Shown piece by piece: positions 7,057 to 64,000 of a stretch of DNA of 64,000 nt. The stretch spans positions 3,186-67,185 of IMG/VR virus record IMGVR_UViG_3300045919_000635, one strand, 5' to 3'. The stretch's first letter is position 1. Each line of letters starts with the position of its first letter. The position numbers and the translations under genes are program-made. The stretch is from a virus. Below the pieces are notes generated by a model. That model was not told where the DNA came from, did not search any database, and saw nothing but the letters and a program-made list of their open reading frames with translations.

Positions 7057-7256
7057 GACAACTTACTGAAAGCCAACAAGAAATGGCGTGGAGGATCGCC
7101 CAATACGATGTCAAGTCGGCATCCAGGTATTGCAAGTACGCGATCGCCTTCAACGACATGAAATGCCCGATATGTGGCAGCGAATTAATCAAACGCAGCG
7201 CATTCGATCAGAATTTCCTTTGTCCAAATTCCCGGAAGAGGAAACATGCTAAATAA
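7053..7256 (+). CDS. Small zinc-ribbon protein
   Basis: CPICGSELIKR...FLCPNS motif, ATGA overlap with the previous gene. Confidence 0.55.
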   Translation: MRQLTESQQEMAWRIAQYDVKSASRYCKYAIAFNDMKCPICGSELIKRSAFDQNFLCPNSRKRKHAK

Positions 7257-27794: not shown

Positions 27795-28402
27795 AGTATT
27801 CCCAGATTGATGGACTTCTGGGTAATAGCTTTCAAGACGTGGGAGCGCAATGCATACTTTGCTTCTACGTCTTTTTTTTAATAAAGGAAGGAGTTCGTGG
27901 GAAGAAGGAAGAAGGTTGAAAAGGAAAGAAATAAATAGAGATTTTTCATCCTTCTTCCCTCTTCCTTCGTTCAAAAGATGAGGTATTCGTTGTCATTATA
28001 AAATACGTTTTTAGGGCGTTTACTCGTATTTGTGTTTTTTACATTTATGCAAAGTTAAATACATTAAAAAAATAAAAAACTACCCAAAATTATTTTCAAT
28101 TTGGGCAGCTAATAATTATTAATTGAGGTAGCGCGTTCGCGAAGCGTTGCCGTACTCGGCATCGCATTAATTGAGATGCGATCGCATTGATCCATCCTTA
28201 CGGTAAAGATTTGTTAAGACCAATTGGTCTTAACAATACGCAACAACTCAAGAAAAGCGATGTCGTTCGCGCTTGCGTCCGATCTGCGGAGGCGACAAAG
28301 CTTCTCTTCTCCTGTCGGAGACGCCAAGGGCGAACGAGAGGCACGCGGCTACGCTAACGCACTTCGATTCATGCGATCGCACTCAATCAACAAGAGAAAA
28401 AA

Positions 28403-29578: not shown

Positions 29579-30664
29579 CTACCAAACCTCCTGAGTAGGC
29601 ATCATCTGCTGTCTTTGCATGACGTGCGCTCTTTGCAAATCCTGCCCTAAGTTGGGATTTCCCGACTTCTGCGCTTCAATCCGCTGCCTCAATTGATCCA
29701 TCGGAGTTCCGCCCATACTAGCGCCAGGGATGGCGGGCATTGGCGGAACTTGGGAGCTAGGATTTATTAAGGTGGTCGCTGGCGTGTAAAAGCTTTGGCT
29801 GTCGGGAGTCCCACTAATAGGGGTTTTATTTTGCAACTGAGAGAACCAAATCTGGGAATGACCCCCGTTTACTCGCATGTACTCTTGCTCGTAAGCGTTT
29901 ATCAACTCGTTAAATTCATCCTTAATCCATTCTAAAGCGGGTTGCCCATCAGCCTTAATTGCCTTTTTCCATGCTAGGAATGACCAATAAATCAAGAATT
30001 CTGGGTCACAGAATTGAGTACAGATATAGTCAAGCGTCCTTTCGTGCGCGATCGCATCCCCTGCCCAAATTTGCGATATTTCCACAAATGGTAACAAGGT
30101 ATTGATTGTTTTATCCATCCACTCAATCTCTTGATTCAGCATCGCGTTAATCTGAACAAAAGGCACCAAAGCAGCAACCGCATCTTCCGCCGCATCAACA
30201 TGCTGATTCAATAAAACTGATGTTTCTACAAAAGGCATCAAAGTATTAATTAGTTGATACGACTTAGTATTTTCATCTATTGCCGCCGCAAACCCTGCCG
30301 CTAGTGTCGCCACTTGTTGCTGCAAACTAGCGATCGCGGAGGAGGGATCGAAGTTGGTCTGCGTATAAGGCAAGGAGGCTGGGGTCGATGTCGCCAACGC
30401 TGCCAACCGCCGTTCCTGTTCGGCTATCGTTTGCGCCGTTTGAGGTGCGAAGTTCTCCACCGAATACTGAGAGGGGGTAGCCGCCGCCTCCTGTTGCGGT
30501 TGCCCCTTTGCTGCCTCCTTCCCCCGCAATGCCTCCGCGAAGTTCAGGATTCTCGTAGCCTGATCTATAAAATCTCCCTGCGGCTGCATCGAAGATGCTT
30601 GAGGGTAGCCCCATGCTGGTGAGAACGGGGCTTGTGGGGATGTTCCTTGAAATAAGTTGTTCAT
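29579..30664 (-). CDS. Putative scaffolding protein
   Basis: Q/A/P-rich helical protein between portal and capsid, with an internal INTL.PFV repeat. Confidence 0.55.
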   Translation of the reverse strand: MNNLFQGTSPQAPFSPAWGYPQASSMQPQGDFIDQATRILNFAEALRGKEAAKGQPQQEAAATPSQYSVENFAPQTAQTIAEQERRLAALATSTPASLPYTQTNFDPSSAIASLQQQVATLAAGFAAAIDENTKSYQLINTLMPFVETSVLLNQHVDAAEDAVAALVPFVQINAMLNQEIEWMDKTINTLLPFVEISQIWAGDAIAHERTLDYICTQFCDPEFLIYWSFLAWKKAIKADGQPALEWIKDEFNELINAYEQEYMRVNGGHSQIWFSQLQNKTPISGTPDSQSFYTPATTLINPSSQVPPMPAIPGASMGGTPMDQLRQRIEAQKSGNPNLGQDLQRAHVMQRQQMMPTQEVW

Positions 30665-32522
30665 TTTCGGTTGTTATTGCTCCTGGATTTAATTGAGAAA
30701 TAATATCGGCTAATGCTAGTGGTTCTGAGTTGGCGGGTTCGTAAACTGGTCTTCCGTAAGATATCTCCTTATTTAAAGTCAACATTGCTTGCTCAACTAA
30801 TGCAGGCAATCCCAGAGAAACCCCCCACGGTGCCTTGGGATTCTTGGGGTCGGGTATCTGCATAAACTGGGAGAAAAGTTGCATTAATATTTGTAAACCT
30901 GCTGCCGCATTTTGAACAACGCGAGGAGAGAAACCAGACATGGCATTCTTGATTTCTTGGTCGGTCATGTTTGGATACTGTTTCCTCAGTACCCACTCTT
31001 GACTTAACCCGTCCTCTCTCTCGTTTCTGGCGCTTATACTTAGGTCAAGCTGTTCCCGCGTCGTATTATTAAACACTTCACGAGTAAAACGCCAAATTAC
31101 AGTGCGATCGCCACCCGGTACAATTCCGATATTCGTATCAGGCAGCGGTAATTTACGTTCTTTCTTCATCTGCCACAATGCCTGAGAGATATCGTCAGTC
31201 AACTGGTCGAGAGAAGTTAAAGCCGCAAATTCACGGGCATAATTAGTTTTTAAAGTAGCGAACAACCAGGATTTAAATATCCTTTCTTCCCTTTCTAATA
31301 TCCGCTCAAAAACTTTAGCGAGTCCCGTATGCCCATACAAAGCCTCAGCTTTTTTATCTGCGGTATTTTGCACCCTCCCAAAAAGCGTTTTCACCTCCCC
31401 AAAAGTGGCACCGGCGGAAATGCCCGAAAGTGGATCTACTCCTCCTAATATCCAGTGAATTAATTCCCGAAGTTGTCGTATCCACAAGTTTTGGTCGCCA
31501 GAAACTGGATCAGCTTGAATAAAAGCAAACCGTTCCCCATCCCCCACATTGCCAAAAATTGTATCTAAACTCCCTTCGGAAGTGTTCGCTTGCCACATTC
31601 CCTGTGGCGATCGCTGCATTCCCCAGCTAGGCACATCAACTGGATTAGTCGAACCAGAGTAATTTCCCCCTCCTAAATCAACATAACGATTAGCACTTGC
31701 CCAAGTATTACTCCACCCCGATGCTTGCTGCATTACTTCGTTAGCACTGCGGGTAGTAATGAGGATGGGGTTACTGAACATCCGCAAATTCTTGTGTGCC
31801 TTTTCTACCAAGACCTCGTGTGTCTCAATCAATCCTTGGTGCAAGTAAAAATCATCGCTGCCTTGTTGCCCCAGTTGCCGGGAATTATTCTTGCTTAAAA
31901 CAATTGGCAGATGTGGCTTGAAAGGATTCTCATATTTCTGCGATCGCTCCATCCAAGCAAATTCGCTGTCTCCTTGGGGGCTATATGTAGCAAAACTCCC
32001 CCCATTAAATGATGCATCGAATTGTGGCTTAATTAACGATTCTGACTGATTTATCCAATCAGCCGTAATAATAATCTTTACCCACCGTTGCTGTTTAATC
32101 AGCGTTCCCGGTGTTTCGTTTTCGTAAGAATATCTAACAAATACTTTTTCAATTTCTCGCCCACCCAACTTGTAATAAATCTTAAATTGGGGGTCTGGGT
32201 GATTCAGTCCACCCGTGAAAAATTCAATTTGGTACATTCCCAAGTTTTCATTGTCTGGCGTGAAATACCATAGAACTTCACCCCGACTAACGAAGGAATC
32301 CATAATAAAGTCAAGTCTATGTTGTAAAGAATTGTGTTGCCAAAGCCTAGTAAAAAGCTTCATCCTTGCCCCGCTCTCATCCTGAAGGGGGCGCATTTCT
32401 ACATTTCCGCCTCTTACCCCCCATTCCCGCATTTGAGCGCAATGCAAAGCTACTACAGTACTCTGGCTGCCTGAAGTGCCATCGCGATCTAAAATTGCTT
32501 TGATTTGGGTTTCTAAAGCCAA
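30327..32522 (-). CDS. Portal protein
   Basis: Size and first position in the head operon. Motifs GEVLWYF, P+VLSKN...GSDDF, LGGVD..GISAGATFGEVKTLFGRV..TA.KK...LY..GL. Confidence 0.75.
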   Translation of the reverse strand: MALETQIKAILDRDGTSGSQSTVVALHCAQMREWGVRGGNVEMRPLQDESGARMKLFTRLWQHNSLQHRLDFIMDSFVSRGEVLWYFTPDNENLGMYQIEFFTGGLNHPDPQFKIYYKLGGREIEKVFVRYSYENETPGTLIKQQRWVKIIITADWINQSESLIKPQFDASFNGGSFATYSPQGDSEFAWMERSQKYENPFKPHLPIVLSKNNSRQLGQQGSDDFYLHQGLIETHEVLVEKAHKNLRMFSNPILITTRSANEVMQQASGWSNTWASANRYVDLGGGNYSGSTNPVDVPSWGMQRSPQGMWQANTSEGSLDTIFGNVGDGERFAFIQADPVSGDQNLWIRQLRELIHWILGGVDPLSGISAGATFGEVKTLFGRVQNTADKKAEALYGHTGLAKVFERILEREERIFKSWLFATLKTNYAREFAALTSLDQLTDDISQALWQMKKERKLPLPDTNIGIVPGGDRTVIWRFTREVFNNTTREQLDLSISARNEREDGLSQEWVLRKQYPNMTDQEIKNAMSGFSPRVVQNAAAGLQILMQLFSQFMQIPDPKNPKAPWGVSLGLPALVEQAMLTLNKEISYGRPVYEPANSEPLALADIISQLNPGAITTENEQLISRNIPTSPVLTSMGLPSSIFDAAAGRFYRSGYENPELRGGIAGEGGSKGATATGGGGYPLSVFGGELRTSNGANDSRTGTAVGSVGDIDPSLLALYADQLRSLLRDR

Positions 32523-46756: not shown

Positions 46757-47662
46757 ATGTCCGTAATATTATACGAAATCGCGACGCAAAAAAGGACTTA
46801 CTTGGATGACAATGCGATCGCACTAGATAAAGATTTCGCACTTCAGCTACAGCAGCGACTCTGCGACTTCCACCTCCTCTCTAACCCCGATGGGAGGTGG
46901 GGTGAAAAGTCAGCCGCAGCCCTAGCCAAATTTAAATCTTTCCGAGGATTGAAGGAGGCTGGATGCGGTAACTTGACGGCATCACAACTGATAAATATCA
47001 CACCATCAGGCTTAATTAACGGATACAAACTTGATGGCAGTCTAGCTAGTCGTGCCTTGATGTTTTTTATCGACCGAGGCTTTAAAATCGCCACAAACAA
47101 GAGCGAATGTAACATTTTCTATTTAGAGGGCGTAAACCGCGACGGTTCCCTAAACGACAATAACCGGTTTGTTTATAATGACCGCCGCTGCATTCTCCAA
47201 TTCGATAATAATAACGGACTCCTTACGCCCAAATTAACAGGGAACTGGTTAGCGACATGTGACCCCGGACAATACTACTGGGACAACCCACTCAATGAGA
47301 ACGGGTGCGCGAACATCAAGAAAAACACCCAATATAAGGCTTGGACAACCGGGAAACATCATGACCAATATGCTTTAGTTCAGGCAGCGGATATTACAGT
47401 TTTGCGCGGAGAGAAACAAACTGCTTTTGATGGTGATGACTTTGGAGTAAACCAACACTCTGTAGGGAAGGGGCAGGATTTCTCCTTTGGGGAGGCGATC
47501 GGTAAGTGGAGTGCTGGCTGTTGTGTGGGTGCGAACCGCGCAGAACATGAGAGCTTCATGCGACAAGTTGACGCAGACCCACGAGAGAAAGCGAATAAAG
47601 GCAATTATTTGCACTACACAGCATTTATTAAAGGGGTTAGTTTGGAGGCGACGTTCCCATAA
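46757..47662 (+). CDS. Putative endolysin: peptidoglycan-binding domain plus YkuD-like Cys catalytic domain
   Basis: LQQRL......DGRWGEKSAAALAKFK PG-binding motif. C-terminal GVNQH...WSAGC.V. Confidence 0.75.
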   Translation: MSVILYEIATQKRTYLDDNAIALDKDFALQLQQRLCDFHLLSNPDGRWGEKSAAALAKFKSFRGLKEAGCGNLTASQLINITPSGLINGYKLDGSLASRALMFFIDRGFKIATNKSECNIFYLEGVNRDGSLNDNNRFVYNDRRCILQFDNNNGLLTPKLTGNWLATCDPGQYYWDNPLNENGCANIKKNTQYKAWTTGKHHDQYALVQAADITVLRGEKQTAFDGDDFGVNQHSVGKGQDFSFGEAIGKWSAGCCVGANRAEHESFMRQVDADPREKANKGNYLHYTAFIKGVSLEATFP

Positions 47663-47928
47663 TGTGTAAAGCCCGTAGCTTGTTCCAAACCAAAACCTTT
47701 CAGAGTAGCGCGATCGCACTTCTAGGCGGACTTGCCCCGATTGCGATCGCATGTAGCTACCAACACAGATTGCCTACACAAAACGAAGCGATCGCAACAG
47801 CTGCCCTAATGAGTGTTTTTTCATCTGCTCTTGTAGGGCGTGTCGAAACCTCGCCCGTATTTACACCCGATGGGTTCCCCGGTCCCAATGAAAGTGACAT
47901 CAAAGAATCATCAATTAACTCTAATTAA
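47662..47928 (+). CDS. Putative holin
   Basis: KSLFQTKTF-like start, two hydrophobic segments, VFTPDGFPGPN end. Directly after the lysin. Confidence 0.55.
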   Translation: MCKARSLFQTKTFQSSAIALLGGLAPIAIACSYQHRLPTQNEAIATAALMSVFSSALVGRVETSPVFTPDGFPGPNESDIKESSINSN

Positions 47929-48298
47929 AGGGGGAGAAAAGATAGCCGCGATCGCACTACAAGGCAACTATATAATCGGCAGATCGAAATTTAGATGCTC
48001 TGAACTTGCGATCGCATTTGATGAATCCCCTACCCTGATTATTTTCAATGGGGCTAAGTGCCTTTCGGCGATGCATTGTGTGCTTTATCAAGATTCAATC
48101 GGGTATCAACTAATTGATGGTTGGGGGCTGAAGTACAGCACAAATGGCGTATTCTGCAACGGGCATAAAGTTGATAATACCGCCATAAAACATGGCGATG
48201 AGATTACCCTTGGTTCTGATGAAATAAGCTTACTATATGAATCCGAGCAAGATGCACAAACTGAGGAAGAGACTTTTTCTAATTTTAAAAAAGTATGA
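47840..48298 (+). CDS. FHA domain protein
   Basis: IIGRS...LSAMHC.L......LID....STNGVFCNG......IKHGDEI.LG. Confidence 0.85.
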   Translation: MSKPRPYLHPMGSPVPMKVTSKNHQLTLIKGGEKIAAIALQGNYIIGRSKFRCSELAIAFDESPTLIIFNGAKCLSAMHCVLYQDSIGYQLIDGWGLKYSTNGVFCNGHKVDNTAIKHGDEITLGSDEISLLYESEQDAQTEEETFSNFKKV

Positions 48299-50091: not shown

Positions 50092-50640
50092 TTACCGCCA
50101 AACAAAATAAGTCTTTTTCACGTCATCATCGGACTCCTCAACGAACTCCTCCTGCCAGAATTCGATGGGGTAGTAGGCGATAAAATCGTGAAATTGATAT
50201 TGAGTAACCAACCCTGGATAACTGGGGCTTTCTTTCTCCTCAGTATCAATCCCGCCAGGGCGAATGGGAGTGAGTGCGATCGCTTCACTACTCATCCCTA
50301 ATTCTTCCTTCAGAGCACGTTCCGCTGCATCTTCCGGATTTTCGTTGGGGAGGAATTTTTCGGCTAATCCTTCAATTCTACGTTTACGGATGCGCCCATC
50401 CGCGAAAACTTGGCGATCTTCGTAAAGGCTTAATTCATTATCCAGGGAGATAACTTTCACTCGACACACCTTGATTAGGCGGATAGGCTTATCGCCCTCC
50501 CAAACAATCTCAGATTCGCCTTTCTCTATTTCTTTAACTAAGGATGCAAAATCTTTCGCTCGCCTTTTTCCGTATAATTCCAAGGGAAGATATTCTTGAA
50601 GCCTAGAAGTTTGAGCTATTTGCATAATTTTATCAACCAA
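50092..50640 (-). CDS. NUDIX hydrolase
   Basis: EKFLPNENPEDAAERALKEELG Nudix box and ESPSYPGL motif. Confidence 0.8.
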   Translation of the reverse strand: MVDKIMQIAQTSRLQEYLPLELYGKRRAKDFASLVKEIEKGESEIVWEGDKPIRLIKVCRVKVISLDNELSLYEDRQVFADGRIRKRRIEGLAEKFLPNENPEDAAERALKEELGMSSEAIALTPIRPGGIDTEEKESPSYPGLVTQYQFHDFIAYYPIEFWQEEFVEESDDDVKKTYFVWR

Positions 50641-50741: not shown

Positions 50742-51065
50742 TTAAGCTACTACTTCCGTTTTTGGGATTTCAATGATATCCCCTACTCTCACGCCAGGGA
50801 AATGGGATTGAACAACGACCGCGCCTAAGCGGGGATCTAAATGTGCTACCCACACCGCGATATGGCAGTGATGCGCGATCGCACTATGCAACCAAATTGC
50901 TCCACGGTGGGAGATAATGACACCCTTTTTGAAATCTATAGCTAAGGCATCGACAGCGGCGATCGCGCTTATAATCGCGCTGGTATCGTAGCTAGCTTCA
51001 GTGGATAAAATTTCAATTACTTGAAATTGCTCATTTGACTGAGCGATATTTGCTGTAATGGTCAT
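50742..51065 (-). CDS. csx3: Csx3/Crn3 family ring nuclease
   Basis: KGVIISHRGAIWLH...AHHCH..WVAHLDPRLGAVVVQSH..G..VGDII matches the Csx3 signature (GV++SGRGPIWL..H..H...+DPRLGAVVV.SH). Confidence 0.9.
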   Translation of the reverse strand: MTITANIAQSNEQFQVIEILSTEASYDTSAIISAIAAVDALAIDFKKGVIISHRGAIWLHSAIAHHCHIAVWVAHLDPRLGAVVVQSHFPGVRVGDIIEIPKTEVVA

Positions 51066-52008: not shown

Positions 52009-52060
52009 GAATTTATCTTAGATTAATTCATTTGGATTGTCAAGGAATTTATCTTAGATT
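52009..52060 (-). promoter_or_regulatory. Sigma70 promoter bracketed by 16-bp direct-repeat operator
   Basis: TTGACA(52043)-17-TAAGAT. gaatttatcttagatt occurs at 52009 and 52045. Confidence 0.7.
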
Positions 52061-52068
52061 GAGCAACA

Positions 52069-52258
52069 GAAGGCATGACGGTAGGATAAATCCTACCGTC
52101 AGCCTTCATCCCCGGTCTGAAGCACAGAATGCGGAACTACGTTCCTGTTCTTCCGGGGTTTTCGCCATCCATCTTATAAACCTGGGATTTCTTATCTGCA
52201 TGAGCAAGTTATGTCTTAGATTCAAGAATCCCCGTCTCTTTAGAGCGGGGAGTGTCAA
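52069..52258 (+). mobile_element. IS200/IS605-family right-end remnant / possible orphan reRNA
   Basis: caagaatccccgtctctttagagcggggagtgtcaa is a typical TnpB-element right end ending in TCAA. Upstream hairpin gaagg..gacggtagga..tcctaccgtc..ccttc. Confidence 0.7.
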
Positions 52259-52397: not shown

Positions 52398-53801
52398 TCA
52401 TGTTTTAAATCTAATAGCTGCGTGAGTGCGATTAATTTCAATTAGTTCCATTGCAGCCAGTTGCTCTACAAAGCTTGTAATTTCTGCTGCTGTATTCTTG
52501 CCTTTAAGCACTGCGTAATCTTTGCGACTAATATCACGGACGGCTAACCATTCCCCTTTAGCTTCTTTAGTTGCCTTCCAAATAGTTCGCAATGGTTCGG
52601 GTAATGCATCTGCCGCAGTCAGTTCACATATAGTCGGAATGGGTGTTAGTGTTGCAGTCGTTAAAACTTTATTTGGTGCAATTTGAGGAACTTTATTTTC
52701 AGATTCTCTAATTTTTTTCCCTTTATACTCCAGCAAGTTGGGCAATAATCCCGCCTTCGGTTTCCCACTGGTGCTAATTATTATTGGTACTTTATTCTGT
52801 GTTGAAAGCTTGATATACTTAGCTACATCGATGACAAACTTTTCACGCATCGCACCATCGGGAAAGATGTAGGGGTTTCTGACAATTGACTGGATAACTT
52901 CAAAACCTCCTTGCTCATTGCCATCTTCATCAAGACTAATCAATCCTTGGCTGATAATATTCAAGTTGTTTCTGATGTTAGAATCTTCTGCCAGTCCCAA
53001 AGAAGCAATATTGTAAGTTTGGCTATCAACAAATAACGATACATTAAACTCACGGGCAACCGTTACAATATCCGCAAGTTTAGTTTGCACTTGGGACTCC
53101 CAAAGTTTCTTATGGGATTTCGTCAAACTGTTGTGGGTGCTGTACCAATCAGCAATTATCAACCGAACTGGTAAACTTTTTAGTTTGTCACGCTCTATAC
53201 CCTCTGGTAATTGCGATCGATCAAGAAATATTTCATAAACTTTTTGAAGTGCTTCAAGTGCGGTAGCTGGGTCGGATGAATCATACACCCACACTTTACC
53301 TTTTTCACTTAACCCATTGAAGCTATCGTTTTTACGGGCAATCACATACACATCAGCACTTGGGTAGTTTTCAAACAACTTAGTCAGCCAGTATGACTGA
53401 GTGACTGACTTACCCGCACCACTGGGAGCTGCGAGCAAAGTGCTAAGTTTGGTGTGAACCAATTCGTCAATAATCCGTTGACCAGTTTCAGTGTGTGGTG
53501 AAACGTTGGTAGTTATAGATTGAGCATTGGGCGCTAGTCTTATGTCACTGTCATGTGATTGAGCAGTCGCGTACTCTACGTGCGCTGGTTCTAGAACGGT
53601 TGGTATATATGAATCAGGTTGATTCACCAAATTGGATTTTATATTTTTTTCTTGTAACCCTTGCGGTTTTTCAACTCCAAACTTAGCGATCGCCAATCCA
53701 ACAATAGCCCCCAAAATAATAGAAACTTCCCACCCCGTTGGTATGGGTTGAGAAGTTTTAGGCTTTTGAGTTGCGAGTAATAAGCACAAAAGTAGATTCA
53801 T
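52398..53801 (-). CDS. FtsK/HerA-superfamily membrane-anchored ATPase (TraB/TcpA-like)
   Basis: N-terminal TM, Walker A LLAAPSGAGKS, Walker B RLIIADW, AREFNVSLFVDSQ arginine-finger/Q motif, C-terminal wHTH. Confidence 0.75.
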   Translation of the reverse strand: MNLLLCLLLATQKPKTSQPIPTGWEVSIILGAIVGLAIAKFGVEKPQGLQEKNIKSNLVNQPDSYIPTVLEPAHVEYATAQSHDSDIRLAPNAQSITTNVSPHTETGQRIIDELVHTKLSTLLAAPSGAGKSVTQSYWLTKLFENYPSADVYVIARKNDSFNGLSEKGKVWVYDSSDPATALEALQKVYEIFLDRSQLPEGIERDKLKSLPVRLIIADWYSTHNSLTKSHKKLWESQVQTKLADIVTVAREFNVSLFVDSQTYNIASLGLAEDSNIRNNLNIISQGLISLDEDGNEQGGFEVIQSIVRNPYIFPDGAMREKFVIDVAKYIKLSTQNKVPIIISTSGKPKAGLLPNLLEYKGKKIRESENKVPQIAPNKVLTTATLTPIPTICELTAADALPEPLRTIWKATKEAKGEWLAVRDISRKDYAVLKGKNTAAEITSFVEQLAAMELIEINRTHAAIRFKT

Positions 53802-54064
53802 TTTGAGCGAAACTTACATTGCATTCCAAACACTGCATCATTAGCAAAATTAGTCATACCAACCATTGTGTTGCGAATTGGGGTAGGAACTAAAGAATTT
53901 ACAACTACTCCCCAAAGTAACGGGCTAACAATTAACCACAGTAAAAAAATAACTCCTATTTCTCTGAGTCCAACTTTAAATTTAGAGCGTTCTTCTTTTA
54001 ACTTCAACTCTAAACTTTCAACTTTATCCAGTAAATCAACTTGCTGCCAGTGGTGTGTCTGCAT
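53798..54064 (-). CDS. Small membrane protein
   Basis: IGVIFLLWLIVSPLLWGVVV TM segment, coupled to the ATPase gene. Confidence 0.65.
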   Translation of the reverse strand: MQTHHWQQVDLLDKVESLELKLKEERSKFKVGLREIGVIFLLWLIVSPLLWGVVVNSLVPTPIRNTMVGMTNFANDAVFGMQCKFRSK

Positions 54065-54269
54065 TGGGTTTCCACTTTATTAATGCATTGTCAACTTTGA
54101 AATAAGTCCCAACCAGTAAGGCTGAGACTAATGACAGAAATACAAAAAAAGAAAATATCTTACTTACGACGCTCATCTTTTGCTTGGTCTATTCTAATTA
54201 GCATAATCAAACCGTAGATAATAGCTATTCCAACTATTACCAGTACTCCACTTAATGAGGGAATCATCA

Positions 54270-54791
54270 TCAAACTTTCCTCGCGTCTTGAACTTCTGCG
54301 TGATTAAAAATGTTGGCACATCCAAAAGCTATTTCACTGCCCAACACAAATACAGTGGCAAGTATTTGTATAAACTGTGGCAATCCCGCTGTATTACCTT
54401 TTGCTCCCATCTGAGCAAGGTTTACATTGTAATCAAACCAAAATACATATCCAGCCACCAAACAAAACGCAATGACCCCGGCAATGCTTGCTGCTGCACT
54501 AAAGTTTTTTAGTAGCGGGTCATGACTACCAAGTAAAGCTCTTGGTCTTTCCATTGTTTGCAGTAAAGCATTTGGGTCAAACATTACTGTCATCGCCGCC
54601 GCCTCAATGCCTAGTATCAAAACTACAGCGCTAGAGCTACCAAATATTTGCTGAATCCAATTGCCTCCTGATAATACTTTGTAAAAGTAAGGCGTTAAAG
54701 TTACAGCATTGTAACCAAGAATTAACCAGCCAGATGCTTTCATGATGTTACCAAGCTGGCTATTAGTCTTTTTGTCCCTTGTAAATAACAT
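54270..54791 (-). CDS. Multi-pass membrane protein
   Basis: About four hydrophobic helices. Confidence 0.7.
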   Translation of the reverse strand: MLFTRDKKTNSQLGNIMKASGWLILGYNAVTLTPYFYKVLSGGNWIQQIFGSSSAVVLILGIEAAAMTVMFDPNALLQTMERPRALLGSHDPLLKNFSAAASIAGVIAFCLVAGYVFWFDYNVNLAQMGAKGNTAGLPQFIQILATVFVLGSEIAFGCANIFNHAEVQDARKV

Positions 54792-55287
54792 TATTTAATT
54801 GCTAGTAATCGTACTGCGACTGTTGAGGAATGGCTACACGTCTAAAATTTCATTGAGATTGTACACTGAGTTTTCTGGTTGTTCTTCTACAACTTCAATC
54901 TCTAGCTCTACACTTGCTAATTCTGGCGGTAATCCTTCCACTTCACAGTTCATTATTTTCTAACCAAACCATTCTTTGTGAAACTTGAACATCAGTGACA
55001 GGGAAGGGTTCGTTACCGCCACTAATAACAACCTTCATCTTTTTGTTTTTGACTTCTGCCAACTTATCGATTAATTCTTGGACTGTCATAGTTTTTATTT
55101 TTGATTGGGTAAACATTCAAACTTCTTGCCGTGCCAGTATATCCGAGGTTGATTAATTCCTTCAAAGTATATTTTGTATTGAGGTGGGTCTGTCTTTAAC
55201 TCAATAATGTCACGCACACACAAAATACCTTTTCCTTCTCCTTCGGAGACGCTAGCGCGAACAGGGTCTATAATATTCAACCCTAGA

Positions 55288-55500
55288 TTAATGTCTTGAA
55301 CTAATATTTCCATCACAACTCCTTGTATTTGAAATGTTGTAAGTAATTGTGAGTGCTGATAAAGCAATTGCGATCGCACTCAATCCAATTACTAGTTGAA
55401 AAATCTGCGGGAACTTCTGCTCTACCTTTTTGTAGTAGCGTTTCTGAGTTCCATCGGGGTAATATTCAGCCTCAACTATGTGAGGCTGCTCTTGGTTCAT
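55288..55500 (-). CDS. Small membrane protein
   Basis: IFQLVIGLSAIAIALSAL TM segment. Confidence 0.55.
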   Translation of the reverse strand: MNQEQPHIVEAEYYPDGTQKRYYKKVEQKFPQIFQLVIGLSAIAIALSALTITYNISNTRSCDGNISSRH

Positions 55501-55505
55501 ACAAC

Positions 55506-55724
55506 TTAATACCCAGGCGAATACCTTACGTAATCATTTTCATCAACAGTTATCACTATTTTTTGCTGCTCTATTAATCCTAGAACTAATAAATCAAATT
55601 CTGAAGAAGAAATATCCCCTTCAAAGCAAGCTAAACACCTAATCAATGGGGCTATTTTCCCAGGACATTCATTAACTATTTTGATAATTAGGCTTTCCTT
55701 GTCGTTCACTTTCTCGTAACCCAT
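55506..55724 (-). CDS. Small wHTH-like protein
   Basis: 72 aa within the operon. Confidence 0.5.
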   Translation of the reverse strand: MGYEKVNDKESLIIKIVNECPGKIAPLIRCLACFEGDISSSEFDLLVLGLIEQQKIVITVDENDYVRYSPGY

Positions 55725-55867
55725 GAATGCAAACCAATTGTTGCAACCAACGCCGCGATCGCACCACCAGCAGCGGGAATAAATGCAGCCAATAAAAACG
55801 CTGCGCCTCCAAATCCACCAACTACACTAGTAAGCCCTAATACTCCCGTAGCTCCTTTAATAACCAT
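55706..55867 (-). CDS. Small glycine-zipper membrane peptide
   Basis: AAAGGAG RBS then MVIKGATGVLGLTSVVGGFGGAAFLLAAF... Confidence 0.6.
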   Translation of the reverse strand: MVIKGATGVLGLTSVVGGFGGAAFLLAAFIPAAGGAIAALVATIGLHSWVTRK

Positions 55868-55914
55868 TTCTCCTTTCCCTCTAGTTTTTTGTTTCTCCAA
55901 AATTGAAACGATCA

Positions 55915-56304
55915 TCAGCCACCTGATTCGACAGTAGATGGCATTTCGGATGGCAGTAGTGCGTACTTTGGGCTGTCCTGCCATGTCTCCAGGACATGAC
56001 ACTCTAGAGCTAAAGGGGCGTTTAATCCAGCAAACAACCCATCAAGCATCTCTGCTGATAAATCGCCAAAGTCCCCGTTTTCAAAATCTTGCACAACATC
56101 AGCGATCGCACCAGCCACAAGCTGAGTTTTGATGTTCTCTTTCAGCTGCCGACGACCTTCTGTCAGTTTCCCTTGTAGGGTGTTGCCTGCCGTCTGTGCT
56201 GACTCTGTAGCCCGTCCATTACCCTGCTTGCGTTGTCGGGTGTCGGGTTGTCGGTTATTTGGTTGCCCGACATTATCATCTTCTACTGCTTTCTTGAATG
56301 ACAT
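55915..56304 (-). CDS. Hypothetical protein
   Basis: GGAGG RBS, 129 aa. Confidence 0.65.
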   Translation of the reverse strand: MSFKKAVEDDNVGQPNNRQPDTRQRKQGNGRATESAQTAGNTLQGKLTEGRRQLKENIKTQLVAGAIADVVQDFENGDFGDLSAEMLDGLFAGLNAPLALECHVLETWQDSPKYALLPSEMPSTVESGG

Positions 56305-56620
56305 AAAAATCCTCCATGTGTTGTTTTATTCGAGCCGTCGCACCTACATACTGATACTTCTCTAGAAGTTGCTTGAATTGATACAAAGCTTCAAGGGTTC
56401 CCCTACTTAAGTATTGGTTGTATGGCTTGTAATCAAATCCTTTTGGTTGAGCTTTTTGTAAACAAGTCAAGTATCTCCAACAAGTAGTTGGACTAATTTC
56501 AAGCTCCTTTTCTGCTTTTTTTCTGGATAATTCAGTTTCAGCACTAAAGTGCAATGGTTCTGTTTTGGTATGAGTGAATTCTGAAGTAAACATGAATGAG
56601 ATGTGAATGCGTTCAGACAT
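56276..56620 (-). CDS. HTH DNA-binding protein
   Basis: LSRKKAEKELEISPTTCWRY HTH. Confidence 0.6.
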   Translation of the reverse strand: MSERIHISFMFTSEFTHTKTEPLHFSAETELSRKKAEKELEISPTTCWRYLTCLQKAQPKGFDYKPYNQYLSRGTLEALYQFKQLLEKYQYVGATARIKQHMEDFYVIQESSRR

Positions 56621-56697
56621 CGTTCATACTTTGATAATAAAAAACTTGCACAGTGGCGGGTAGTCATATTTGTCGCAAAAGTGTCGCAAAAGTGAAA

Positions 56698-56904
56698 TCA
56701 AAAGTCAAAAAAAATTCCGTAACTTTTGCCCGATTTTTCCCACTTAGTATTAACTTCGCTTAAAATCCACCGAGCATATCGGGGGGTTTTTTGCTGCCAT
56801 CGCTGAATCGTTCTTATGTCGCGCTCAAAAAATGCTGCCAGCAAATTAAATATTTCGCAGTCCTGTGATAGACCCCATCTGGCTAAGAATTCAAGTAAGC
56901 TCAT
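56698..56904 (-). CDS. Cro-like HTH protein
   Basis: MSLLEFLARWGLS...LAAFFERDIRTIQRW. AGGAG RBS before ATG 56904. Confidence 0.65.
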   Translation of the reverse strand: MSLLEFLARWGLSQDCEIFNLLAAFFERDIRTIQRWQQKTPRYARWILSEVNTKWEKSGKSYGIFFDF

Positions 56905-57063
56905 AGTTGCTCCTGCTACAGGTTGTGCTGTGGTTGGGGAAGTCCGACGGTGAAGGTTCAGAGCTTCACCGTCGGGCATCTTTATTTAATTTAATATAAA
57001 ACCAGCCGACATAAACCAACGGGTGATAATATATAACTAAGAATATACTACATTTTAAGTCGA

Positions 57064-57420
57064 ATGCCAAAGTTGAACATCAGTTCGGTTGACCTAACTG
57101 AAGATGAGATTGACTTCCTTAAGGCTATTTGCAACCTTTCGGGCGAATCTGTGAGAGCGCAAGTTCGCCAAATAATCAAAGGGCATTTAGTTAGGTTCAA
57201 GCCGCAATACCTTAAGCAGATAAACTATCTTGCACGAAAATACGGGCTGACATTTCAAGAAACTTTTCTTCGGCTAACCACCGGGCAGCCCCCATTTGGC
57301 GAAGTGGTGATGGAAGCGCCAGTTTTGGAAGAGGAAGAAATCACCAACTTTGGTTGTGAGGTTAAGGGTGCGATTCCAGGCAGCGGCAATGTGAAATACA
57401 AGCCAGGAGAGGAAGGGTAG
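57064..57420 (+). CDS. Putative RHH-like repressor, divergent from the Cro-like gene
   Basis: MPKLNISSVDLTEDEIDFLKAICNLSGESVRAQVRQII. Confidence 0.55.
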   Translation: MPKLNISSVDLTEDEIDFLKAICNLSGESVRAQVRQIIKGHLVRFKPQYLKQINYLARKYGLTFQETFLRLTTGQPPFGEVVMEAPVLEEEEITNFGCEVKGAIPGSGNVKYKPGEEG

Positions 57421-57728: not shown

Positions 57729-59027
57729 ATGTCTAATTTTGTATTCGTGCTTGACACCAACTTTCAACCATTAAACCCAGTTCCACCGGGACAAGCTAGG
57801 CGATTACTGAAAGCAAAGCAAGCTGCTGTCTATCGTCGTTACCCATTCACAATCATCCTAAAATACGCGGTTCCAAGTCCTGATACAGAACCACACCAAT
57901 TAAAAATAGATCCAGGCTCTAAGACTACTGGATTAGCAATTGTGCAGGGCGAGAAAGTTATCTGGGGTGCAGAATTGACCCACCGTGGGCAACAAATCAA
58001 AAACGATTTAGAGTCACGCCGCGTTATTCGTCGCAGTCGTCGTAACCGCAAAACCCGTTACCGGAAACCAAGATTTCTAAACCGCACTCGCCAAAAAGAT
58101 TGGTTAGCACCAAGCCTTAATTCCAGAGTTGAAAACATCCTAACTTGGGTCAATCGGATAACTCGATATGTGCCGATTACTGGCATATCTCAAGAGTTGG
58201 TTAAATTCGATCTGGCTGCAATGCAGAATCCTGAAATCTCAGGCAAGGAATACCAGCAAGGAGAATTAGCCGGCTACGAAGTCAGGGAGTATTTACTTGA
58301 AAAATGGGGCAGAAAGTGCGCTTATTGCGGTGTTGAAAACGTCCCATTTGAAGTTGAACATATTCGCCCGAAATCAAAGGGAGGAAGTGACAGAATTTCA
58401 AATCTCACGCTTGCTTGTCATGATTGCAATCAAGCAAAAGGGAGTAGAGATGTTAAAGATTTCTTAGCCAAAAAGCCCGATATTTTATCCCGTATCTTGA
58501 GGCAAGCTAAACTTCCACTCAAAGATGCAGCAGCGGTTAATTCAACCCGGTGGGCATTGTTTGAAAGACTAAAACAGACAGGGTATCCAGTAGAAACCGG
58601 GACGGGTGGCAAGACAAAATACAACCGTGTCCGGCTTAACTTACCTAAAGCGCATTGGTTAGATGCTGCCTGCGTAGGGAATGTAGAAAGCCTACAAATT
58701 GTTACCTCTACACCCTTGCTGATTGCTGCTAAGGGGTGGGGGAATCGCCAAATGTGTACAACCAATAAATACGGCTTCCCGATTCGTCATAGAACACGCT
58801 GCAAGACTTTCTTTGGTTTCCAAACTGGTGATATGGCACGGGCAATTCTCCCCACTGGGAAGTTCGCAGGTGTTCATGTTGGCAGATTAACCGTCCGCGA
58901 AAGTGGTGTATTTGAAATGCGTACATTGATTGGTAAAGTTAGTCCGGTACGCCATAAGTACTGCGAATCTATCCATCGTAACGATGGGTACATGTATGCA
59001 TTCCCTACTGACTCAGTGACTATTTGA
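57729..59027 (+). CDS. iscB: IscB RNA-guided endonuclease (RRXRR/HNH), apparently intact
   Basis: PLNP N-terminus, RuvC-I IDPGSKTTG, RRSRRNRKTRYR bridge helix, RuvC-II QELVKFD, HNH EHIRPKSKGGS..NLTLAC..CN, RuvC-III HWLDAAC. Confidence 0.95.
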   Translation: MSNFVFVLDTNFQPLNPVPPGQARRLLKAKQAAVYRRYPFTIILKYAVPSPDTEPHQLKIDPGSKTTGLAIVQGEKVIWGAELTHRGQQIKNDLESRRVIRRSRRNRKTRYRKPRFLNRTRQKDWLAPSLNSRVENILTWVNRITRYVPITGISQELVKFDLAAMQNPEISGKEYQQGELAGYEVREYLLEKWGRKCAYCGVENVPFEVEHIRPKSKGGSDRISNLTLACHDCNQAKGSRDVKDFLAKKPDILSRILRQAKLPLKDAAAVNSTRWALFERLKQTGYPVETGTGGKTKYNRVRLNLPKAHWLDAACVGNVESLQIVTSTPLLIAAKGWGNRQMCTTNKYGFPIRHRTRCKTFFGFQTGDMARAILPTGKFAGVHVGRLTVRESGVFEMRTLIGKVSPVRHKYCESIHRNDGYMYAFPTDSVTI

Positions 59028-59781: not shown

Positions 59782-60993
59782 ATGACAACTTTAACATTGA
59801 CCCGACCGATTGATCAAGAAATTTCCTCCCCATTTGAAGCCATCCAGCAATTAATCCCCTTATGTACGCCTGTTGAGCGGCTAAAAGTTGCTTCGTCCGC
59901 GTCACTGAGTGCCGGCGAAGAGTTTAGCGAGATAAAGGCTGACTGTGGCAAGCCTAAGAATTTTAAAGAAAAGCTCTCGGAACTGGGGTTAACGCTGAAA
60001 GAAGTTAACAAACATGAGAAGGCTTACCAAAAACTCAATGGGTTTCGGCACTTGATTTTGGGGCTGGGTGCGAGCGCGATGTTTGCGCTAACGGCTCCTC
60101 GGATGGAGCCAGTGCTTCAGCACATAATTGAGGTAAATGAGCCTGTAGATCAAGAGATGTTTGAAGCACTAAAGAAAGAATTAATTCCCGCACCCCAGAA
60201 GAAAGCGAAATTGAATGGCGTAGAGTGGGAGGCTTCCCCAGGCGGTGGCAATAGGAGCCTTCGCATTGCTGGGGCAATTCCAGATTCAGAGAATGCCCGG
60301 TGGCTTAACGAAAAATTCGAGGCGAATAACGGACAGATATACGCCGTCGTCTCCGAGTTTATCCAAACTGAGCATGAGCTACTTTCGCTAAAATCTGAGG
60401 TGGCCGCGATCGCACCCTCTCCCGAAATTGCGATCGCACAAACCACTGCGTCCCTACCCGAAATTGCGATCGCAAACCCTCCCGCGTCCTTACCCTCCGA
60501 TGCGATCGCAACGACTGCTCAATGCCCAATGCCCGATACCCAATGCCCGATACCGACTCTTATTGCGGTTGGCGATCGCGTGGTAGTAACTGAGCAAGAT
60601 AGGGGATATTTCACGCATCAGGGCGTAGTTGTAGCTCCTATAGCCCTCATAGCCACACCAGAGATTAATGCATGGGAGGTGCAGCTTGACGGCTCGTGCG
60701 ATACACTGTTTTTCAAGAGCAATCAGCTTGCGCCATTAACGCTTTTTGACATGGAGCGCCAAGACTCGCCAGTAATTGCCAAAGACTGCGAGCCGATGTC
60801 ATTACTTCAAATCGAAGCAGCTGGCGGTGATATTGAAGAATTCATCGGGTTAGAAGTCTCGGTGCGGACGATGGAGGGCAAGCCAAAGTTTAACGGCATC
60901 CTAGCCAAGTTTGATGAGAAAAACTATTTTGTAAAGGTGACAACCGAGGAGGGCGATCGCATTTGTGACTTGCGGGAAACTTGGGTGAGTTAG
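59782..60993 (+). CDS. Hypothetical protein with HIP1- and heptamer-derived linker and KOW-like domains
   Basis: PEIAIA repeats, caatgccc repeats, and IAVGDRVVV...GVV SH3/KOW-like motif. Confidence 0.6.
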   Translation: MTTLTLTRPIDQEISSPFEAIQQLIPLCTPVERLKVASSASLSAGEEFSEIKADCGKPKNFKEKLSELGLTLKEVNKHEKAYQKLNGFRHLILGLGASAMFALTAPRMEPVLQHIIEVNEPVDQEMFEALKKELIPAPQKKAKLNGVEWEASPGGGNRSLRIAGAIPDSENARWLNEKFEANNGQIYAVVSEFIQTEHELLSLKSEVAAIAPSPEIAIAQTTASLPEIAIANPPASLPSDAIATTAQCPMPDTQCPIPTLIAVGDRVVVTEQDRGYFTHQGVVVAPIALIATPEINAWEVQLDGSCDTLFFKSNQLAPLTLFDMERQDSPVIAKDCEPMSLLQIEAAGGDIEEFIGLEVSVRTMEGKPKFNGILAKFDEKNYFVKVTTEEGDRICDLRETWVS

Positions 60994-61930: not shown

Positions 61931-62314
61931 CTACCATTCAAATAATTCCAACAACGCAGGTTTTACCCGCACCAAAATCCCTACAGTTTTCTCTTGATTT
62001 CTGACTTTGCGTTGCTTGACAAATACCCCCGAACAACCCACTACAAAGGACGATGAATCGTTCTCTAGATACCCAGCTTGCACCATCGCATCTAGCACAG
62101 AGCCTTGCAAGTTGTCGGCATCGCTACTAAGGAAATTAACAAAAAAGCACTCGACAAAACAGGGCTTGGGGGCACCGGGTAATCTCAGTTTTTTGATGGT
62201 GGCGATCGCATCAAATTTCCACCTCCCATATCTTGGGCAAGTGTGGACAATGCCCGATGAAAACCGAGGTCGCGCTTTACCGATACCCCTACCTTCTAAC
62301 CAAAATTGCTGCAT
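61931..62314 (-). CDS. rusA: RusA-family Holliday junction resolvase
   Basis: GKARPRF......Y..WK...SDADNL.GSVLDAMV.AG.LENDS. Confidence 0.85.
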   Translation of the reverse strand: MQQFWLEGRGIGKARPRFSSGIVHTCPRYGRWKFDAIATIKKLRLPGAPKPCFVECFFVNFLSSDADNLQGSVLDAMVQAGYLENDSSSFVVGCSGVFVKQRKVRNQEKTVGILVRVKPALLELFEW

Positions 62315-62329
62315 ACATAACTATCTACT

Positions 62330-62626
62330 ATGCCCGAAATTATACCTGAATTCGATATCGATGCTGCGATCGCGCAAGACATACCAGGAACGCCACAAAT
62401 TACCACCACCTCACAATTGCAGAAGCAAATTGATTTATGCAGCAGTGGACAAATCACGATTGAAGCTTTCTATATGAGCGTGGTGTTTGACCTGGGGCTG
62501 ATGACATCCGAGGCTTGGGATTACTTGCAACAAAATAACGGCACCCCGTCCCCGGAGATGATACAAAAACTACTTGGCACTATTGCTGGATGGAAAGTTG
62601 TTGATATTAGCAAACTTACCCCTTGA
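62330..62626 (+). CDS. Hypothetical protein
   Basis: 98-aa ORF divergent from rusA. Confidence 0.45.
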   Translation: MPEIIPEFDIDAAIAQDIPGTPQITTTSQLQKQIDLCSSGQITIEAFYMSVVFDLGLMTSEAWDYLQQNNGTPSPEMIQKLLGTIAGWKVVDISKLTP

Positions 62627-62660
62627 CACTACGTTCTCCACTTGTTACTATAGATATAAC
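62623..62660 (+). promoter_or_regulatory. Sigma70 promoter, copy 1
   Basis: TTGACA-17-TACTAT. 28-nt core identical to 63383-63410. Confidence 0.75.
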
Positions 62661-62681
62661 GAGTAAGAGAGAAAGGATTAA

Positions 62682-62903
62682 ATGATATTAAATTCTGATT
62701 GGACGGTTATTAAGTCTTTAGAAAATGGCGGCGAAATTCTTGCGATGGACGATGGCAATATTCGCGTATCTTTTCCAGACGATATCTCAGAAGACATTGT
62801 GCGTGATGCGTTGCGTCACAAAAATATTGAAGTTAGCGACAACGTTGTGTTTGAATCTGGCGAAGCAGAAGGCGAAACAGTAGCGTTCTTCTTGCGGGAA
62901 TAG
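62682..62903 (+). CDS. Small acidic protein
   Basis: AAAGGA RBS, D/E-rich 73 aa. Confidence 0.65.
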   Translation: MILNSDWTVIKSLENGGEILAMDDGNIRVSFPDDISEDIVRDALRHKNIEVSDNVVFESGEAEGETVAFFLRE

Positions 62904-62983
62904 TTTATTTTTCTTGACTGGTTCAGCAGCGCGATCGCATTAATTAAAGTGCGATCGCAACAAAAAGATTCACAAATAATTCA

Positions 62984-63376
62984 ATGTCAAAAACAAACGC
63001 CGAACGGGTCGCCAACTACCGCCAAAGAATAAAAGACGGAGTAGAAATTCCGCGATGTAAGTGCGATCGCCCCCTAAAAGGCAAACTATCCCAACGCCGG
63101 CGAATGTGCCGGACATGTTTTACAAGTAGCCCAGATGGTAAGCACCGGGCATGGTTACGAGTAAACGAGAGACGCCATCGCAGTGTCTTACAAGAATATC
63201 TCAAAGCCTGGGGTAGTTGGAAAATTGGAGATAAAACGACTTCCCCTGATGGCAGCGCGGGGGTTGTGGATGCGATCGCACTTTACGTCAATGGGAGCGT
63301 AACGGCTGAGGTGCAATTTGAGGGTGATTCTGAGTCATTTTTAATTTCTTCCATCAATCCACTAATTAGCTATTGA
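62984..63376 (+). CDS. Zinc-finger protein
   Basis: TNAERVANYRQR..., CKC...CRTC. Confidence 0.6.
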   Translation: MSKTNAERVANYRQRIKDGVEIPRCKCDRPLKGKLSQRRRMCRTCFTSSPDGKHRAWLRVNERRHRSVLQEYLKAWGSWKIGDKTTSPDGSAGVVDAIALYVNGSVTAEVQFEGDSESFLISSINPLISY

Positions 63377-63410
63377 CGCTGTGTTCTCCACTTGTTACTA
63401 TAGATATAAC
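63373..63410 (+). promoter_or_regulatory. Sigma70 promoter, copy 2
   Basis: TTGACG-17-TACTAT. Confidence 0.7.
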
Positions 63411-63428
63411 AAGCAAAGAGAAACGACA

Positions 63429-63791
63429 ATGACACAGTTACAAATTACCAAAAAGACCAAAAAGACTTTATATATTACCATTACTGGTAAAACAACAAAA
63501 AAACAAACTAACTATATTGTCAAGGACTGGGCATCAGTAAACGACGCGATTTCCTGCCTTCACGACAGAAACGACATCAAGCTTTTATTAGACGCTTCTG
63601 TAGGCATCCTGAGCGCGGCTGATATAACTAGCTTAACTTCTCACTACTTTCCTACAGTCAAACAAATAAGGGTCAGTAAAAAGAAAGCAAGCGATCGCCA
63701 AAAATGGTTTGATGATAACGCTCGTCAGCTTGATGCCATGACCGAACACATGGTTAATCATCCTGGTTTCATGACAAACAAGCCTTTTTAG
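63429..63791 (+). CDS. Basic hypothetical protein
   Basis: MTQLQITKKTKK..., downstream of promoter copy 2. Confidence 0.6.
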   Translation: MTQLQITKKTKKTLYITITGKTTKKQTNYIVKDWASVNDAISCLHDRNDIKLLLDASVGILSAADITSLTSHYFPTVKQIRVSKKKASDRQKWFDDNARQLDAMTEHMVNHPGFMTNKPF

Positions 63792-63816
63792 AGGTAAGGC
63801 GATCGCAGTCAATTTT

Positions 63817-63859
63817 GAACCACCCAGGCTTTGAGGTAGTTTGGGTGGTTCTTTTTTTT
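63817..63859 (+). terminator. Intrinsic terminator
   Basis: gaaccaccca...tgggtggttc followed by a T8 tract. Confidence 0.8.
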
Positions 63860-64000
63860 GAGCATCAATCAGACAGCAGCAACGCGATCGCCTACTCATG
63901 CCAATGCCCAAGCTCGATAGGTACGAACTATCAAATCTGGGCATCGGGCAAATCTAACGCCAAAAATAAAGCCAAATCTTAGATAATTTTATCACTGTTG

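Follow-up and report, generated by a model that had tools for sequence, protein, structure and literature searches.

A C-terminal winged helix-turn-helix (wHTH) domain is typical of the ATPases FtsK and TraB, and not of TcpA or VirD4. In the Streptomyces plasmid pIJ101, korA is divergent from tra, which is followed by spdA, spdB and kilB, and a hydrophobicity scan of this plasmid detected one FtsK-like ATPase and four small transmembrane (TM) proteins together with the divergent regulator. TraB has been reported in Actinobacteria only, and homologues of TcpA, the conjugation coupling protein of the Clostridium perfringens plasmid pCW3, in Firmicutes only, in the passages of PMC3548315 that concern these proteins. 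Here we analyze an operon of a similar general design, located at 52398–57420 in a 64,000-nucleotide stretch of viral DNA (hereafter, the window), which corresponds to bases 3186–67185 of a linear 67,185-bp IMG/VR record (IMGVR_UViG_3300045919_000635). The operon ends with a gene encoding an FtsK/HerA-type ATPase, which is the main subject of this study.

Plasmid movement among cyanobacteria is poorly understood. Recognizable conjugation or mobilization genes were present on approximately 12% of 424 cyanobacterial plasmids, and the authors of that study, where they discuss this point, refer to a proposal that some unknown mechanism is at work (PMC8600333). The new observation reported here is that the ATPase belongs to a family carried by 32 plasmids of filamentous cyanobacteria and by Nodularia phages, with a conserved polytopic open reading frame (ORF) upstream. 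The module is real and uncharacterized, and it is a concrete candidate for the missing mechanism of plasmid transfer in cyanobacteria. We tentatively regard the window operon as a plasmid-type membrane translocase module in a tailed, probably temperate cyanophage, an interpretation in which our confidence falls somewhat short of even.

An ATPase family with an FtsK/HerA fold

The last gene of the operon (52398–53801, minus strand) encodes a 467-amino acid (aa) protein. A Kyte–Doolittle scan (19-aa window, threshold 1.6), which was used for all hydrophobic segments described below, placed a single TM segment at approximately residues 20–44. An AlphaFold2 model built from 26 homologues (predicted local distance difference test score, 73.9) contained a TM helix at 24–41, a disordered stretch at 42–99, a compact core at 100–365 and, after a linker, a C-terminal H-H-H-β-β domain, which the model and structure comparison identified as a wHTH (residues 396–467). 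The core superposed better on FtsK, HerA or VirB4 motors than on RecA or AAA+ proteins, as expected of the FtsK/HerA superfamily. In both VIA comparisons the top structural match was TcpA, followed by FtsK. A preliminary description of the window had proposed a TM-anchored FtsK-type ATPase with a C-terminal wHTH at the end of the operon, and the fold bears this out; the structure prediction that it had suggested as a check returned the FtsK/HerA fold, with TcpA nearest. A TM anchor combined with a C-terminal winged helix is the architecture of FtsK and TraB, and the order of TM anchor, motor and wHTH is common to the window ATPase, FtsK, SpoIIIE and TraB. In a Foldseek search, ORC/Cdc6 led by E-value. 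This match was rejected as an artefact of the ATPase-plus-winged-helix layout, with a root mean square deviation of 23–24 Å and no high Z-score in VIA.

The Walker A motif of the protein is APSGAGKS, in which G128, G130 and K131 were invariant in the 26 homologues, and the Walker B motif is VRLIIADW, in which D218 was invariant and W219 was present in at least 90% of the 26 aligned sequences. Throughout the family, Trp replaces the usual catalytic Glu that follows the Walker B Asp. The preliminary description had read this motif as IIADW and had considered the activity uncertain. The reading is correct and the concern is a real one, but the motif does not reflect decay, since the D-W pair occurs family-wide, including the Nodularia phage homologue gp140, and is a conserved family trait. 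The residues R250, Q261, N264 and R277 were also invariant across the 26 homologues, as were K157 and D159, and this conservation indicates that the ATPase is under selection. The six invariant polar residues suggest an active site in which the catalytic residue may have been relocated. Even if the role of the protein is in segregation or defence, an invariant D-W Walker B motif, in an FtsK-like motor that is well conserved in other respects, is a variation in enzymology that calls for an explanation. The description that fits the ATPase best is that of a new family, specific to cyanobacteria, in the FtsK/HerA superfamily.

Distribution of the ATPase family in plasmids and phages

A word-indexed protein search returned 86 proteins, all unnamed or 'hypothetical' and none with a Pfam domain, and an exhaustive search of a library of 1.84 billion proteins returned 209 cluster representatives at E ≤ 0.001. 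With tblastn, the family was found in 32 plasmid records (Nostoc, 20; Leptolyngbya, 4; Tolypothrix, 2; Aulosira, 2; Oscillatoria, 2; Microchaete, 1; Calothrix, 1) and in 9 phage records, all of which were Nodularia phages. Motif scans yielded 8 IMG/VR loci and 32 genome-contig loci, and 31 of these 32 contigs have cyanobacterial names. The remaining contig comes from an 'Acetobacteraceae' metagenome-assembled genome. Because it formed a tight cluster with Nostoc and Chlorogloeopsis plasmid sequences in the tree described below, mis-binning is probable. Of 401 genomes sampled evenly across the phylum, 12 contained a match to the ATPase, and all 12 were 6.0–8.4 Mb in size. All named host genera and taxa of the family are, we take it, filamentous. 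The preliminary description had proposed a comparison of filamentous with unicellular hosts. In this comparison, none of the 32 ATPase plasmids came from a unicellular genus, as against at least 62 of the 221 plasmids with CyRepA1-type Rep proteins that served as the baseline (Fisher's test, p of approximately 1e-4, ignoring relatedness). Among named records, the family is apparently limited to filamentous cyanobacteria, where it occurs on plasmids and in their phages.

An operon of approximately 10 small unnamed genes ends with the ATPase gene on pNPUN04, on pCC7120gamma (ATPase gene at 61987–63933 of NC_003267.1) and on a 29-kb Tolypothrix plasmid. Such sequences indicate that the module belongs to the backbone of plasmids from filamentous cyanobacteria. 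Mobility typing classified 14 of the 32 plasmids as mobilizable, 12 as non-mobilizable and 6 as conjugative. Among the phages, vB_NspS-kac65v151 of Nodularia encodes a 712-aa homologue, gp140 (locus L045, 6089–8227; 24% identity), which has an N-terminal hydrophobic segment, a Walker A motif APSRTGKT and a D-W Walker B motif LLIITDW, and whose gene is preceded by approximately 15 small ORFs on the same strand. A tree constructed by a quick method, and indicative only, grouped the window sequence with three other loci (L004, L012 and L013; SH-aLRT, 99) and showed at least three changes of the 'virus record' label, with virus records and plasmids intermixed. This intermixing, and the absence of shared virion genes on the ATPase plasmids, suggest exchange of the module between plasmids and phages. 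A search of one full-text literature library found no paper on this ATPase family or on DNA transfer along cyanobacterial filaments.

Membrane proteins encoded upstream of the ATPase

The preliminary description had counted at least four small membrane proteins in the operon; six were detected here in addition to the ATPase segment. A positional partner of the ATPase is a polytopic membrane protein, which in the window is a 173-aa protein with three to four hydrophobic segments (54270–54791, minus strand). At 32 of the 36 loci with enough upstream sequence, a polytopic ORF of 126–272 aa lay directly upstream and ended no more than 1.5 kb before the ATPase core, as compared with 18 of 473 random control positions. 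A database search with the 173-aa protein returned five close homologues, including itself, with no names and no Pfam domains. The partner proteins of the plasmid operons likewise belonged to no Pfam family, and no homology was detected between the small proteins of the window operon and those of the plasmid operons by blastp or phmmer. In G001, the closest relative found for the window record, the ATPase is retained at 64% identity along with three of the upstream genes of the window, in unchanged order.

The phage record and its host

The window record is a tailed phage. It encodes a large terminase (14135–17395, plus strand; 1086 aa), a major head protein (26589–27974) and a large virion/portal-like protein (30327–32522). 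Matches to Hint/intein-splicing and LAGLIDADG homing-endonuclease domains within the terminase indicate that it contains one or more intein insertions. The CheckV completeness estimate of the record is 46%. The 64-kb window contains 168 copies of HIP1 (GCGATCGC), with local clusters at 241–313 and 60406–60579, and this number indicates a cyanobacterial host. Megablast with 20 kb of the window gave no match among phage records. One DNA sequencing run, of a wetland metagenome, may be where the record comes from, and no RNA run was listed. G001 is 75,718 bp in length, carries direct terminal repeats and was rated 100% complete by CheckV; its capsid protein is 35% identical to that of the window, and it encodes a tyrosine integrase. 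In the window record, which is shorter than G001, Pfam searches gave no match to an integrase, StbA or ParB. A temperate lifestyle of the window phage is likely, given the integrase of G001 and the shorter length of the window record.

We also considered whether the element could be a phage-plasmid. This idea was rejected, because relatives of the window capsid and portal-like proteins were found on none of the 32 ATPase plasmids. The sole record in the plasmid collection with such relatives was NZ_CP083583.1, a 1.2-Mb replicon of Kovacikia minuta CCNUW1, where they are adjacent at 711954–716222 (capsid, 36%; portal-like protein, 32%), and this region is probably a related prophage.

Comparison with described translocases

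The preliminary description had called the operon TraB/Spd-like. The general design supports this comparison, since the layout is like that of pIJ101, and the window element shares with Streptomyces TraB/Spd elements a multicellular filamentous host and the fact that no relaxase or VirB4 was found on it. Membership by sequence did not hold, because no similarity to the Tra, Spd or KilB proteins of pIJ101 was detected. With pIJ101 Tra as the one reference protein, blastp against the window ATPase gave E ≥ 5.5, and phmmer likewise gave nothing below E = 0.07, which does not indicate homology to TraB/Tra. The gene order is also reversed relative to pIJ101, as the window ATPase gene comes last. 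A TraB/Spd-like transfer function is plausible by analogy. The absence of relaxase and VirB4 genes noted in the preliminary description was confirmed with four Pfam models (PF03135, PF03432, PF03389 and PF01076), which found nothing at E ≤ 1 across the 67,185-bp record, itself an estimated 46% complete; MOBT and Rep_trans were not included in this search.

TcpA (PDB 6o1x and 6o1z), the nearest structure, is 14% identical to the window ATPase and gave no profile match. The window protein differs from it in having the C-terminal wHTH and D-W in place of D-E, and the window record differs from the TcpA system in that no VirB4-like ATPase or relaxase was found with the ATPase by the above models. 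FtsK and SpoIIIE are the other natural comparison. PF01580 (FtsK/SpoIIIE) did not match the window ATPase at E ≤ 10, and its match to a distant homologue (P0086; E = 0.063, 13.2 bits) was below the cut-off of 24. In contrast to FtsK/SpoIIIE, the model of the window protein has no separate alpha domain before the core, the catalytic Glu is replaced by Trp, and a comparison with the wHTH did not single out the FtsK gamma domain. FtsK has four TM helices, whereas the window ATPase has one.

Possible functions of the operon

As a general mechanism we favor, by analogy and with some doubt, DNA translocation for transfer or spread. The C-terminal winged helix would select the DNA of the element itself, and the motor, presumably a ring, would pump it through the cytoplasmic membrane, across a pore made of the polytopic partner encoded upstream and the small membrane proteins. 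In a filament, the DNA would then pass to a neighboring or contacting cell, and the divergent pair of small regulators (56904–57420) would set expression. We infer DNA as the substrate, assembly into a ring, the direction of transport and delivery between cells. More specific versions are less likely. That the phage spreads from cell to cell without lysis seems quite unlikely. We would give similarly little weight to the fuller scenario, in which a relaxase-independent, TraB-like machinery for the transfer of double-stranded DNA (dsDNA), made up of the TM-anchored FtsK/TcpA-fold ATPase with a wHTH that reads sequence, the polytopic partner and the small membrane proteins, would be native to filamentous cyanobacteria, would be used by plasmids to spread, and would have been captured by a temperate phage for non-lytic movement of its genome along the filament. 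In that scenario, the system would be without precedent outside Actinobacteria and in virion-forming phages. If DNA transfer were the function, FtsK-type dsDNA conjugation would extend past Actinobacteria, and a phage might conceivably spread within a multicellular bacterium without lysis.

A number of results weigh against translocation for transfer or spread. The ATPase had no Pfam match at E ≤ 0.1 (two unrelated sub-threshold matches at E ≤ 10), no NCBIfam match at E ≤ 1 and no PHROG match, and in HMMER searches of PDB sequences neither the single protein nor either of two profiles aligned beyond the P-loop (PDB FtsK, E = 0.79–1.3). The family-wide Trp in place of the catalytic Glu is an objection on the side of chemistry. 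Alignment of pIJ101 Tra to the profile of the ATPase family (hhalign) gave a probability of 7.7% over 24 P-loop/Walker A columns, and SpdA, SpdB, ORF66 and KilB of pIJ101 gave a best E-value of 0.073 against the operon ORFs by blastp and no match at E ≤ 10 by phmmer, which does not indicate homology to the Spd/KilB proteins. No clt-like array was found near the ATPase gene, where the one non-HIP1 repeat was a 9-mer present three times at 52016–52222, nor did L004 contain a clt-like repeat cluster; a plain terminator lies directly after its ATPase gene. Pfam and PHROG recognized no peptidoglycan hydrolase in the operon. The polytopic partners have apparently diverged past detection between locus groups, as the hhalign probability did not exceed 57% between groups, or 5.4% where the window protein was compared. 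Homologues are also carried by Nodularia phages of 139–147 kb that have been isolated as such. The remaining objections are findings that favor other functions, and they are considered with these.

The plasmid operons often begin with ParM/StbA and lie beside Rep or copy-control genes, and many loci are headed by an ORF of 358–371 aa. This setting would suit a role in segregation or septum clearance, in which a membrane translocase guided by its wHTH would keep or pump copies to the right side of the closing septum, so that no daughter cell of a filament would be left without the plasmid or prophage. The restriction to filamentous hosts would fit as well, and so would a fold and layout like those of FtsK. 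We nevertheless consider this role unlikely, because the window record lacks StbA, ParB and an integrase as judged by Pfam, the large Nodularia phages with homologues were isolated as phages, and six accessory membrane proteins and a conserved polytopic partner would be left unexplained. The ATPase could instead act in relaxase-dependent coupling, as a TcpA-like type IV coupling protein that passes relaxase-bound single-stranded DNA (ssDNA) to a type IV secretion system supplied by the same element or by a helper plasmid; the gene in the phage would have been captured or repurposed. The rank of TcpA in the structural comparisons is in line with this, as is the NCBI name given to part of the family ('type IV secretory system conjugative DNA transfer family protein'). 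The 29-kb plasmid of Tolypothrix PCC 7601 (L049) carries a relaxase and MobC at 3254–5345, related relaxases occur on pNPUN04 and on a Nostoc C057 plasmid, and MobC occurs on several plasmids, so that TcpA-like coupling in ssDNA mobilization is possible on those plasmids. Relatives of the Tolypothrix relaxase were found on 117 plasmid records, mostly of Nostocales. On the Tolypothrix plasmid, however, the relaxase lies approximately 13 kb from the ATPase operon. Relaxase-typed plasmids (mobilizable or conjugative) made up 20 of the 32 ATPase plasmids and 99 of the 221 CyRepA1 plasmids, an enrichment that was not significant (p = 0.087), and the other 12 ATPase plasmids were typed as non-mobilizable. 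With no relaxase or VirB4 recognized in the window by the four models, and with a C-terminal domain of the FtsK/TraB type rather than that of TcpA or VirD4, we regard coupling as rather improbable.

Similarity to HerA and DndH, and the island of Csx3 and NUDIX genes next to the operon, raise the question of defence or superinfection exclusion, by which a membrane HerA/FtsK-like ATPase and its partners would block or expel incoming foreign DNA, an advantage for the plasmid or prophage already in the cell. Pfam and PADLOC searches recognized no effector partner, such as a nuclease or Sir2, and this sets the window ATPase apart from the HerA-type ATPases of defence systems (Sir2-HerA, DUF4297-HerA and DndH). 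The window protein further differs from these systems in its TM anchor and wHTH, and its family in forming a conserved plasmid-backbone operon. The weak mad8 match obtained for the ATPase with PADLOC was limited to the P-loop region, and a defensive role is, on balance, improbable. Even less can be said for type VII-like protein export, in which the FtsK-like ATPase and its membrane partners would secrete some of the small soluble proteins of the operon. Similarity to EssC/EccC leaves a small chance of this. EssC and EccC have three ATPase domains, but the window protein is built on the single core at 100–365, without tandem domains and without FHA, Pfam detected neither an FHA nor a WXG100 family match in the operon, and the DNA-binding-type wHTH points to nucleic acid. 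We consider export highly improbable.

Gene organization and control sites of the operon

The operon comprises 14 minus-strand ORFs running from 56904 to 52398. Most of them overlap a neighbor or are separated from it by at most 7 nt; two junctions are overlaps of just 4 nt, and the widest gap is 77 nt. The packing, together with a promoter-like site at 57070–57042 and a probable terminator at 52076–52101, agrees with the minus-strand operon of the preliminary description. The promoter-like site (TTGGCA-17-TATATT, minus strand; 10 of 12 matches) heads the operon and overlaps the start of a divergent gene at 57064. The region contained 18 promoter-like sites, as compared with 15.1 ± 4.1 in shuffled sequences, so that the site by itself proves nothing. 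Between the site and the ATG at 56904 lies a leader hairpin with a 14-bp stem and nine G-C pairs (56942–56977). The terminator is a perfect palindrome with 12-nt arms, located approximately 300 nt past the ATPase stop codon, and beyond it lies the promoter-like site of the next unit (52043–52015). Within 52009–52222 there are three copies of the 9-mer AATCTAAGA (minus strand), two of them contained in a 16-nt direct repeat on either side of the −35 element of this promoter-like site. The arrangement looks like an operator for the downstream unit.

The preliminary description had seen a repressor/Cro-like switch at the head of the operon. The genes are divergent as stated, and the repressor/Cro identity is plausible; no Pfam, PHROG or PADLOC family was matched at E ≤ 0.001. 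The divergent gene (57064–57420, plus strand) encodes a 118-aa protein, a candidate ribbon-helix-helix regulator, for which structure matches in the Atlas to CopG and FitA-like ribbon-helix-helix clusters (structural TM-score by query, 0.45–0.47) provide a lead only. The first gene of the operon (56698–56904) encodes 68 aa from an internal ATG of a 93-aa frame and is followed by a tandem 11-mer present twice (56671–56692), with a partial inverted partner at 56722–56743, which is a candidate protein-binding site. Helix-turn-helix motifs in the 68-aa protein and in the 114-aa protein of 56276–56620 are suspected by eye only, and neither protein matched a Pfam, PHROG or PADLOC family. The 72-aa protein of 55506–55724 gave a weak winged-helix hint (PF21100, MCM_C; E = 0.016, 15.5 bits, cut-off 27), the one sub-threshold match of this kind in the operon. 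The helix-turn-helix proteins of the preliminary description were therefore not confirmed and are only plausible.

The other genes, all on the minus strand, include that of a 129-aa soluble protein (55915–56304) whose position is kept in related virus records (phmmer; L004, E = 4e-32; L007, L008 and L009, E = 2e-6 to 4e-6); a search of 5.8 billion proteins returned four sequences, including itself, with no names and no Pfam domains. A 98-aa membrane protein with two hydrophobic segments (55706–56002) has a homologue at the same position in L004 (44.6% identity over 92 aa, E = 1e-20), and a 70-aa single-TM protein (55288–55500) has one that is 66% identical over 65 aa (E = 3e-29). These are followed by three ORFs taken from the ORF list, namely one of up to 94 aa (55095–55379), one of 57 aa (54943–55116) and an acidic one of 39 aa (54834–54953). 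Between the polytopic partner and the ATPase lie a 37-aa TM peptide (54160–54273), whose start overlaps the preceding stop codon by 4 nt, a 46-aa TM peptide found by the hydrophobicity scan (54036–54176) and an 88-aa TM protein (53798–54064), whose stop codon overlaps the ATPase start by 4 nt.

Neighboring genes

Immediately beyond the ATPase operon, the next unit encodes a Csx3/Crn3 ring nuclease (50742–51065, minus strand; TIGR02579, E = 1.6e-21, 76.4 bits, cut-off 55.4; PADLOC Csx3, 1.5e-21), which is a candidate anti-type-III-CRISPR protein of the phage. It adjoins a NUDIX-domain protein (50092–50640, minus strand; PF00293, E = 3.4e-4), whose score of 21.1 bits is exactly at the cut-off. 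Immediately to the right of the divergent 118-aa gene is an RRXRR plus HNH endonuclease gene (57729–59027, plus strand; PF14239, 1.2e-73; phrog_2214, 1.7e-155). Farther away, a protein with an FHA domain (47840–48298, plus strand; PF00498, 3e-10) adjoins one with a hint of a peptidoglycan-binding domain (46757–47662), and a single 1022-aa protein (7246–10314, plus strand) fuses a C5 cytosine methylase (PF00145, 1.3e-30) to a Dam-type N6 adenine methylase (PF05869, 1.6e-18).

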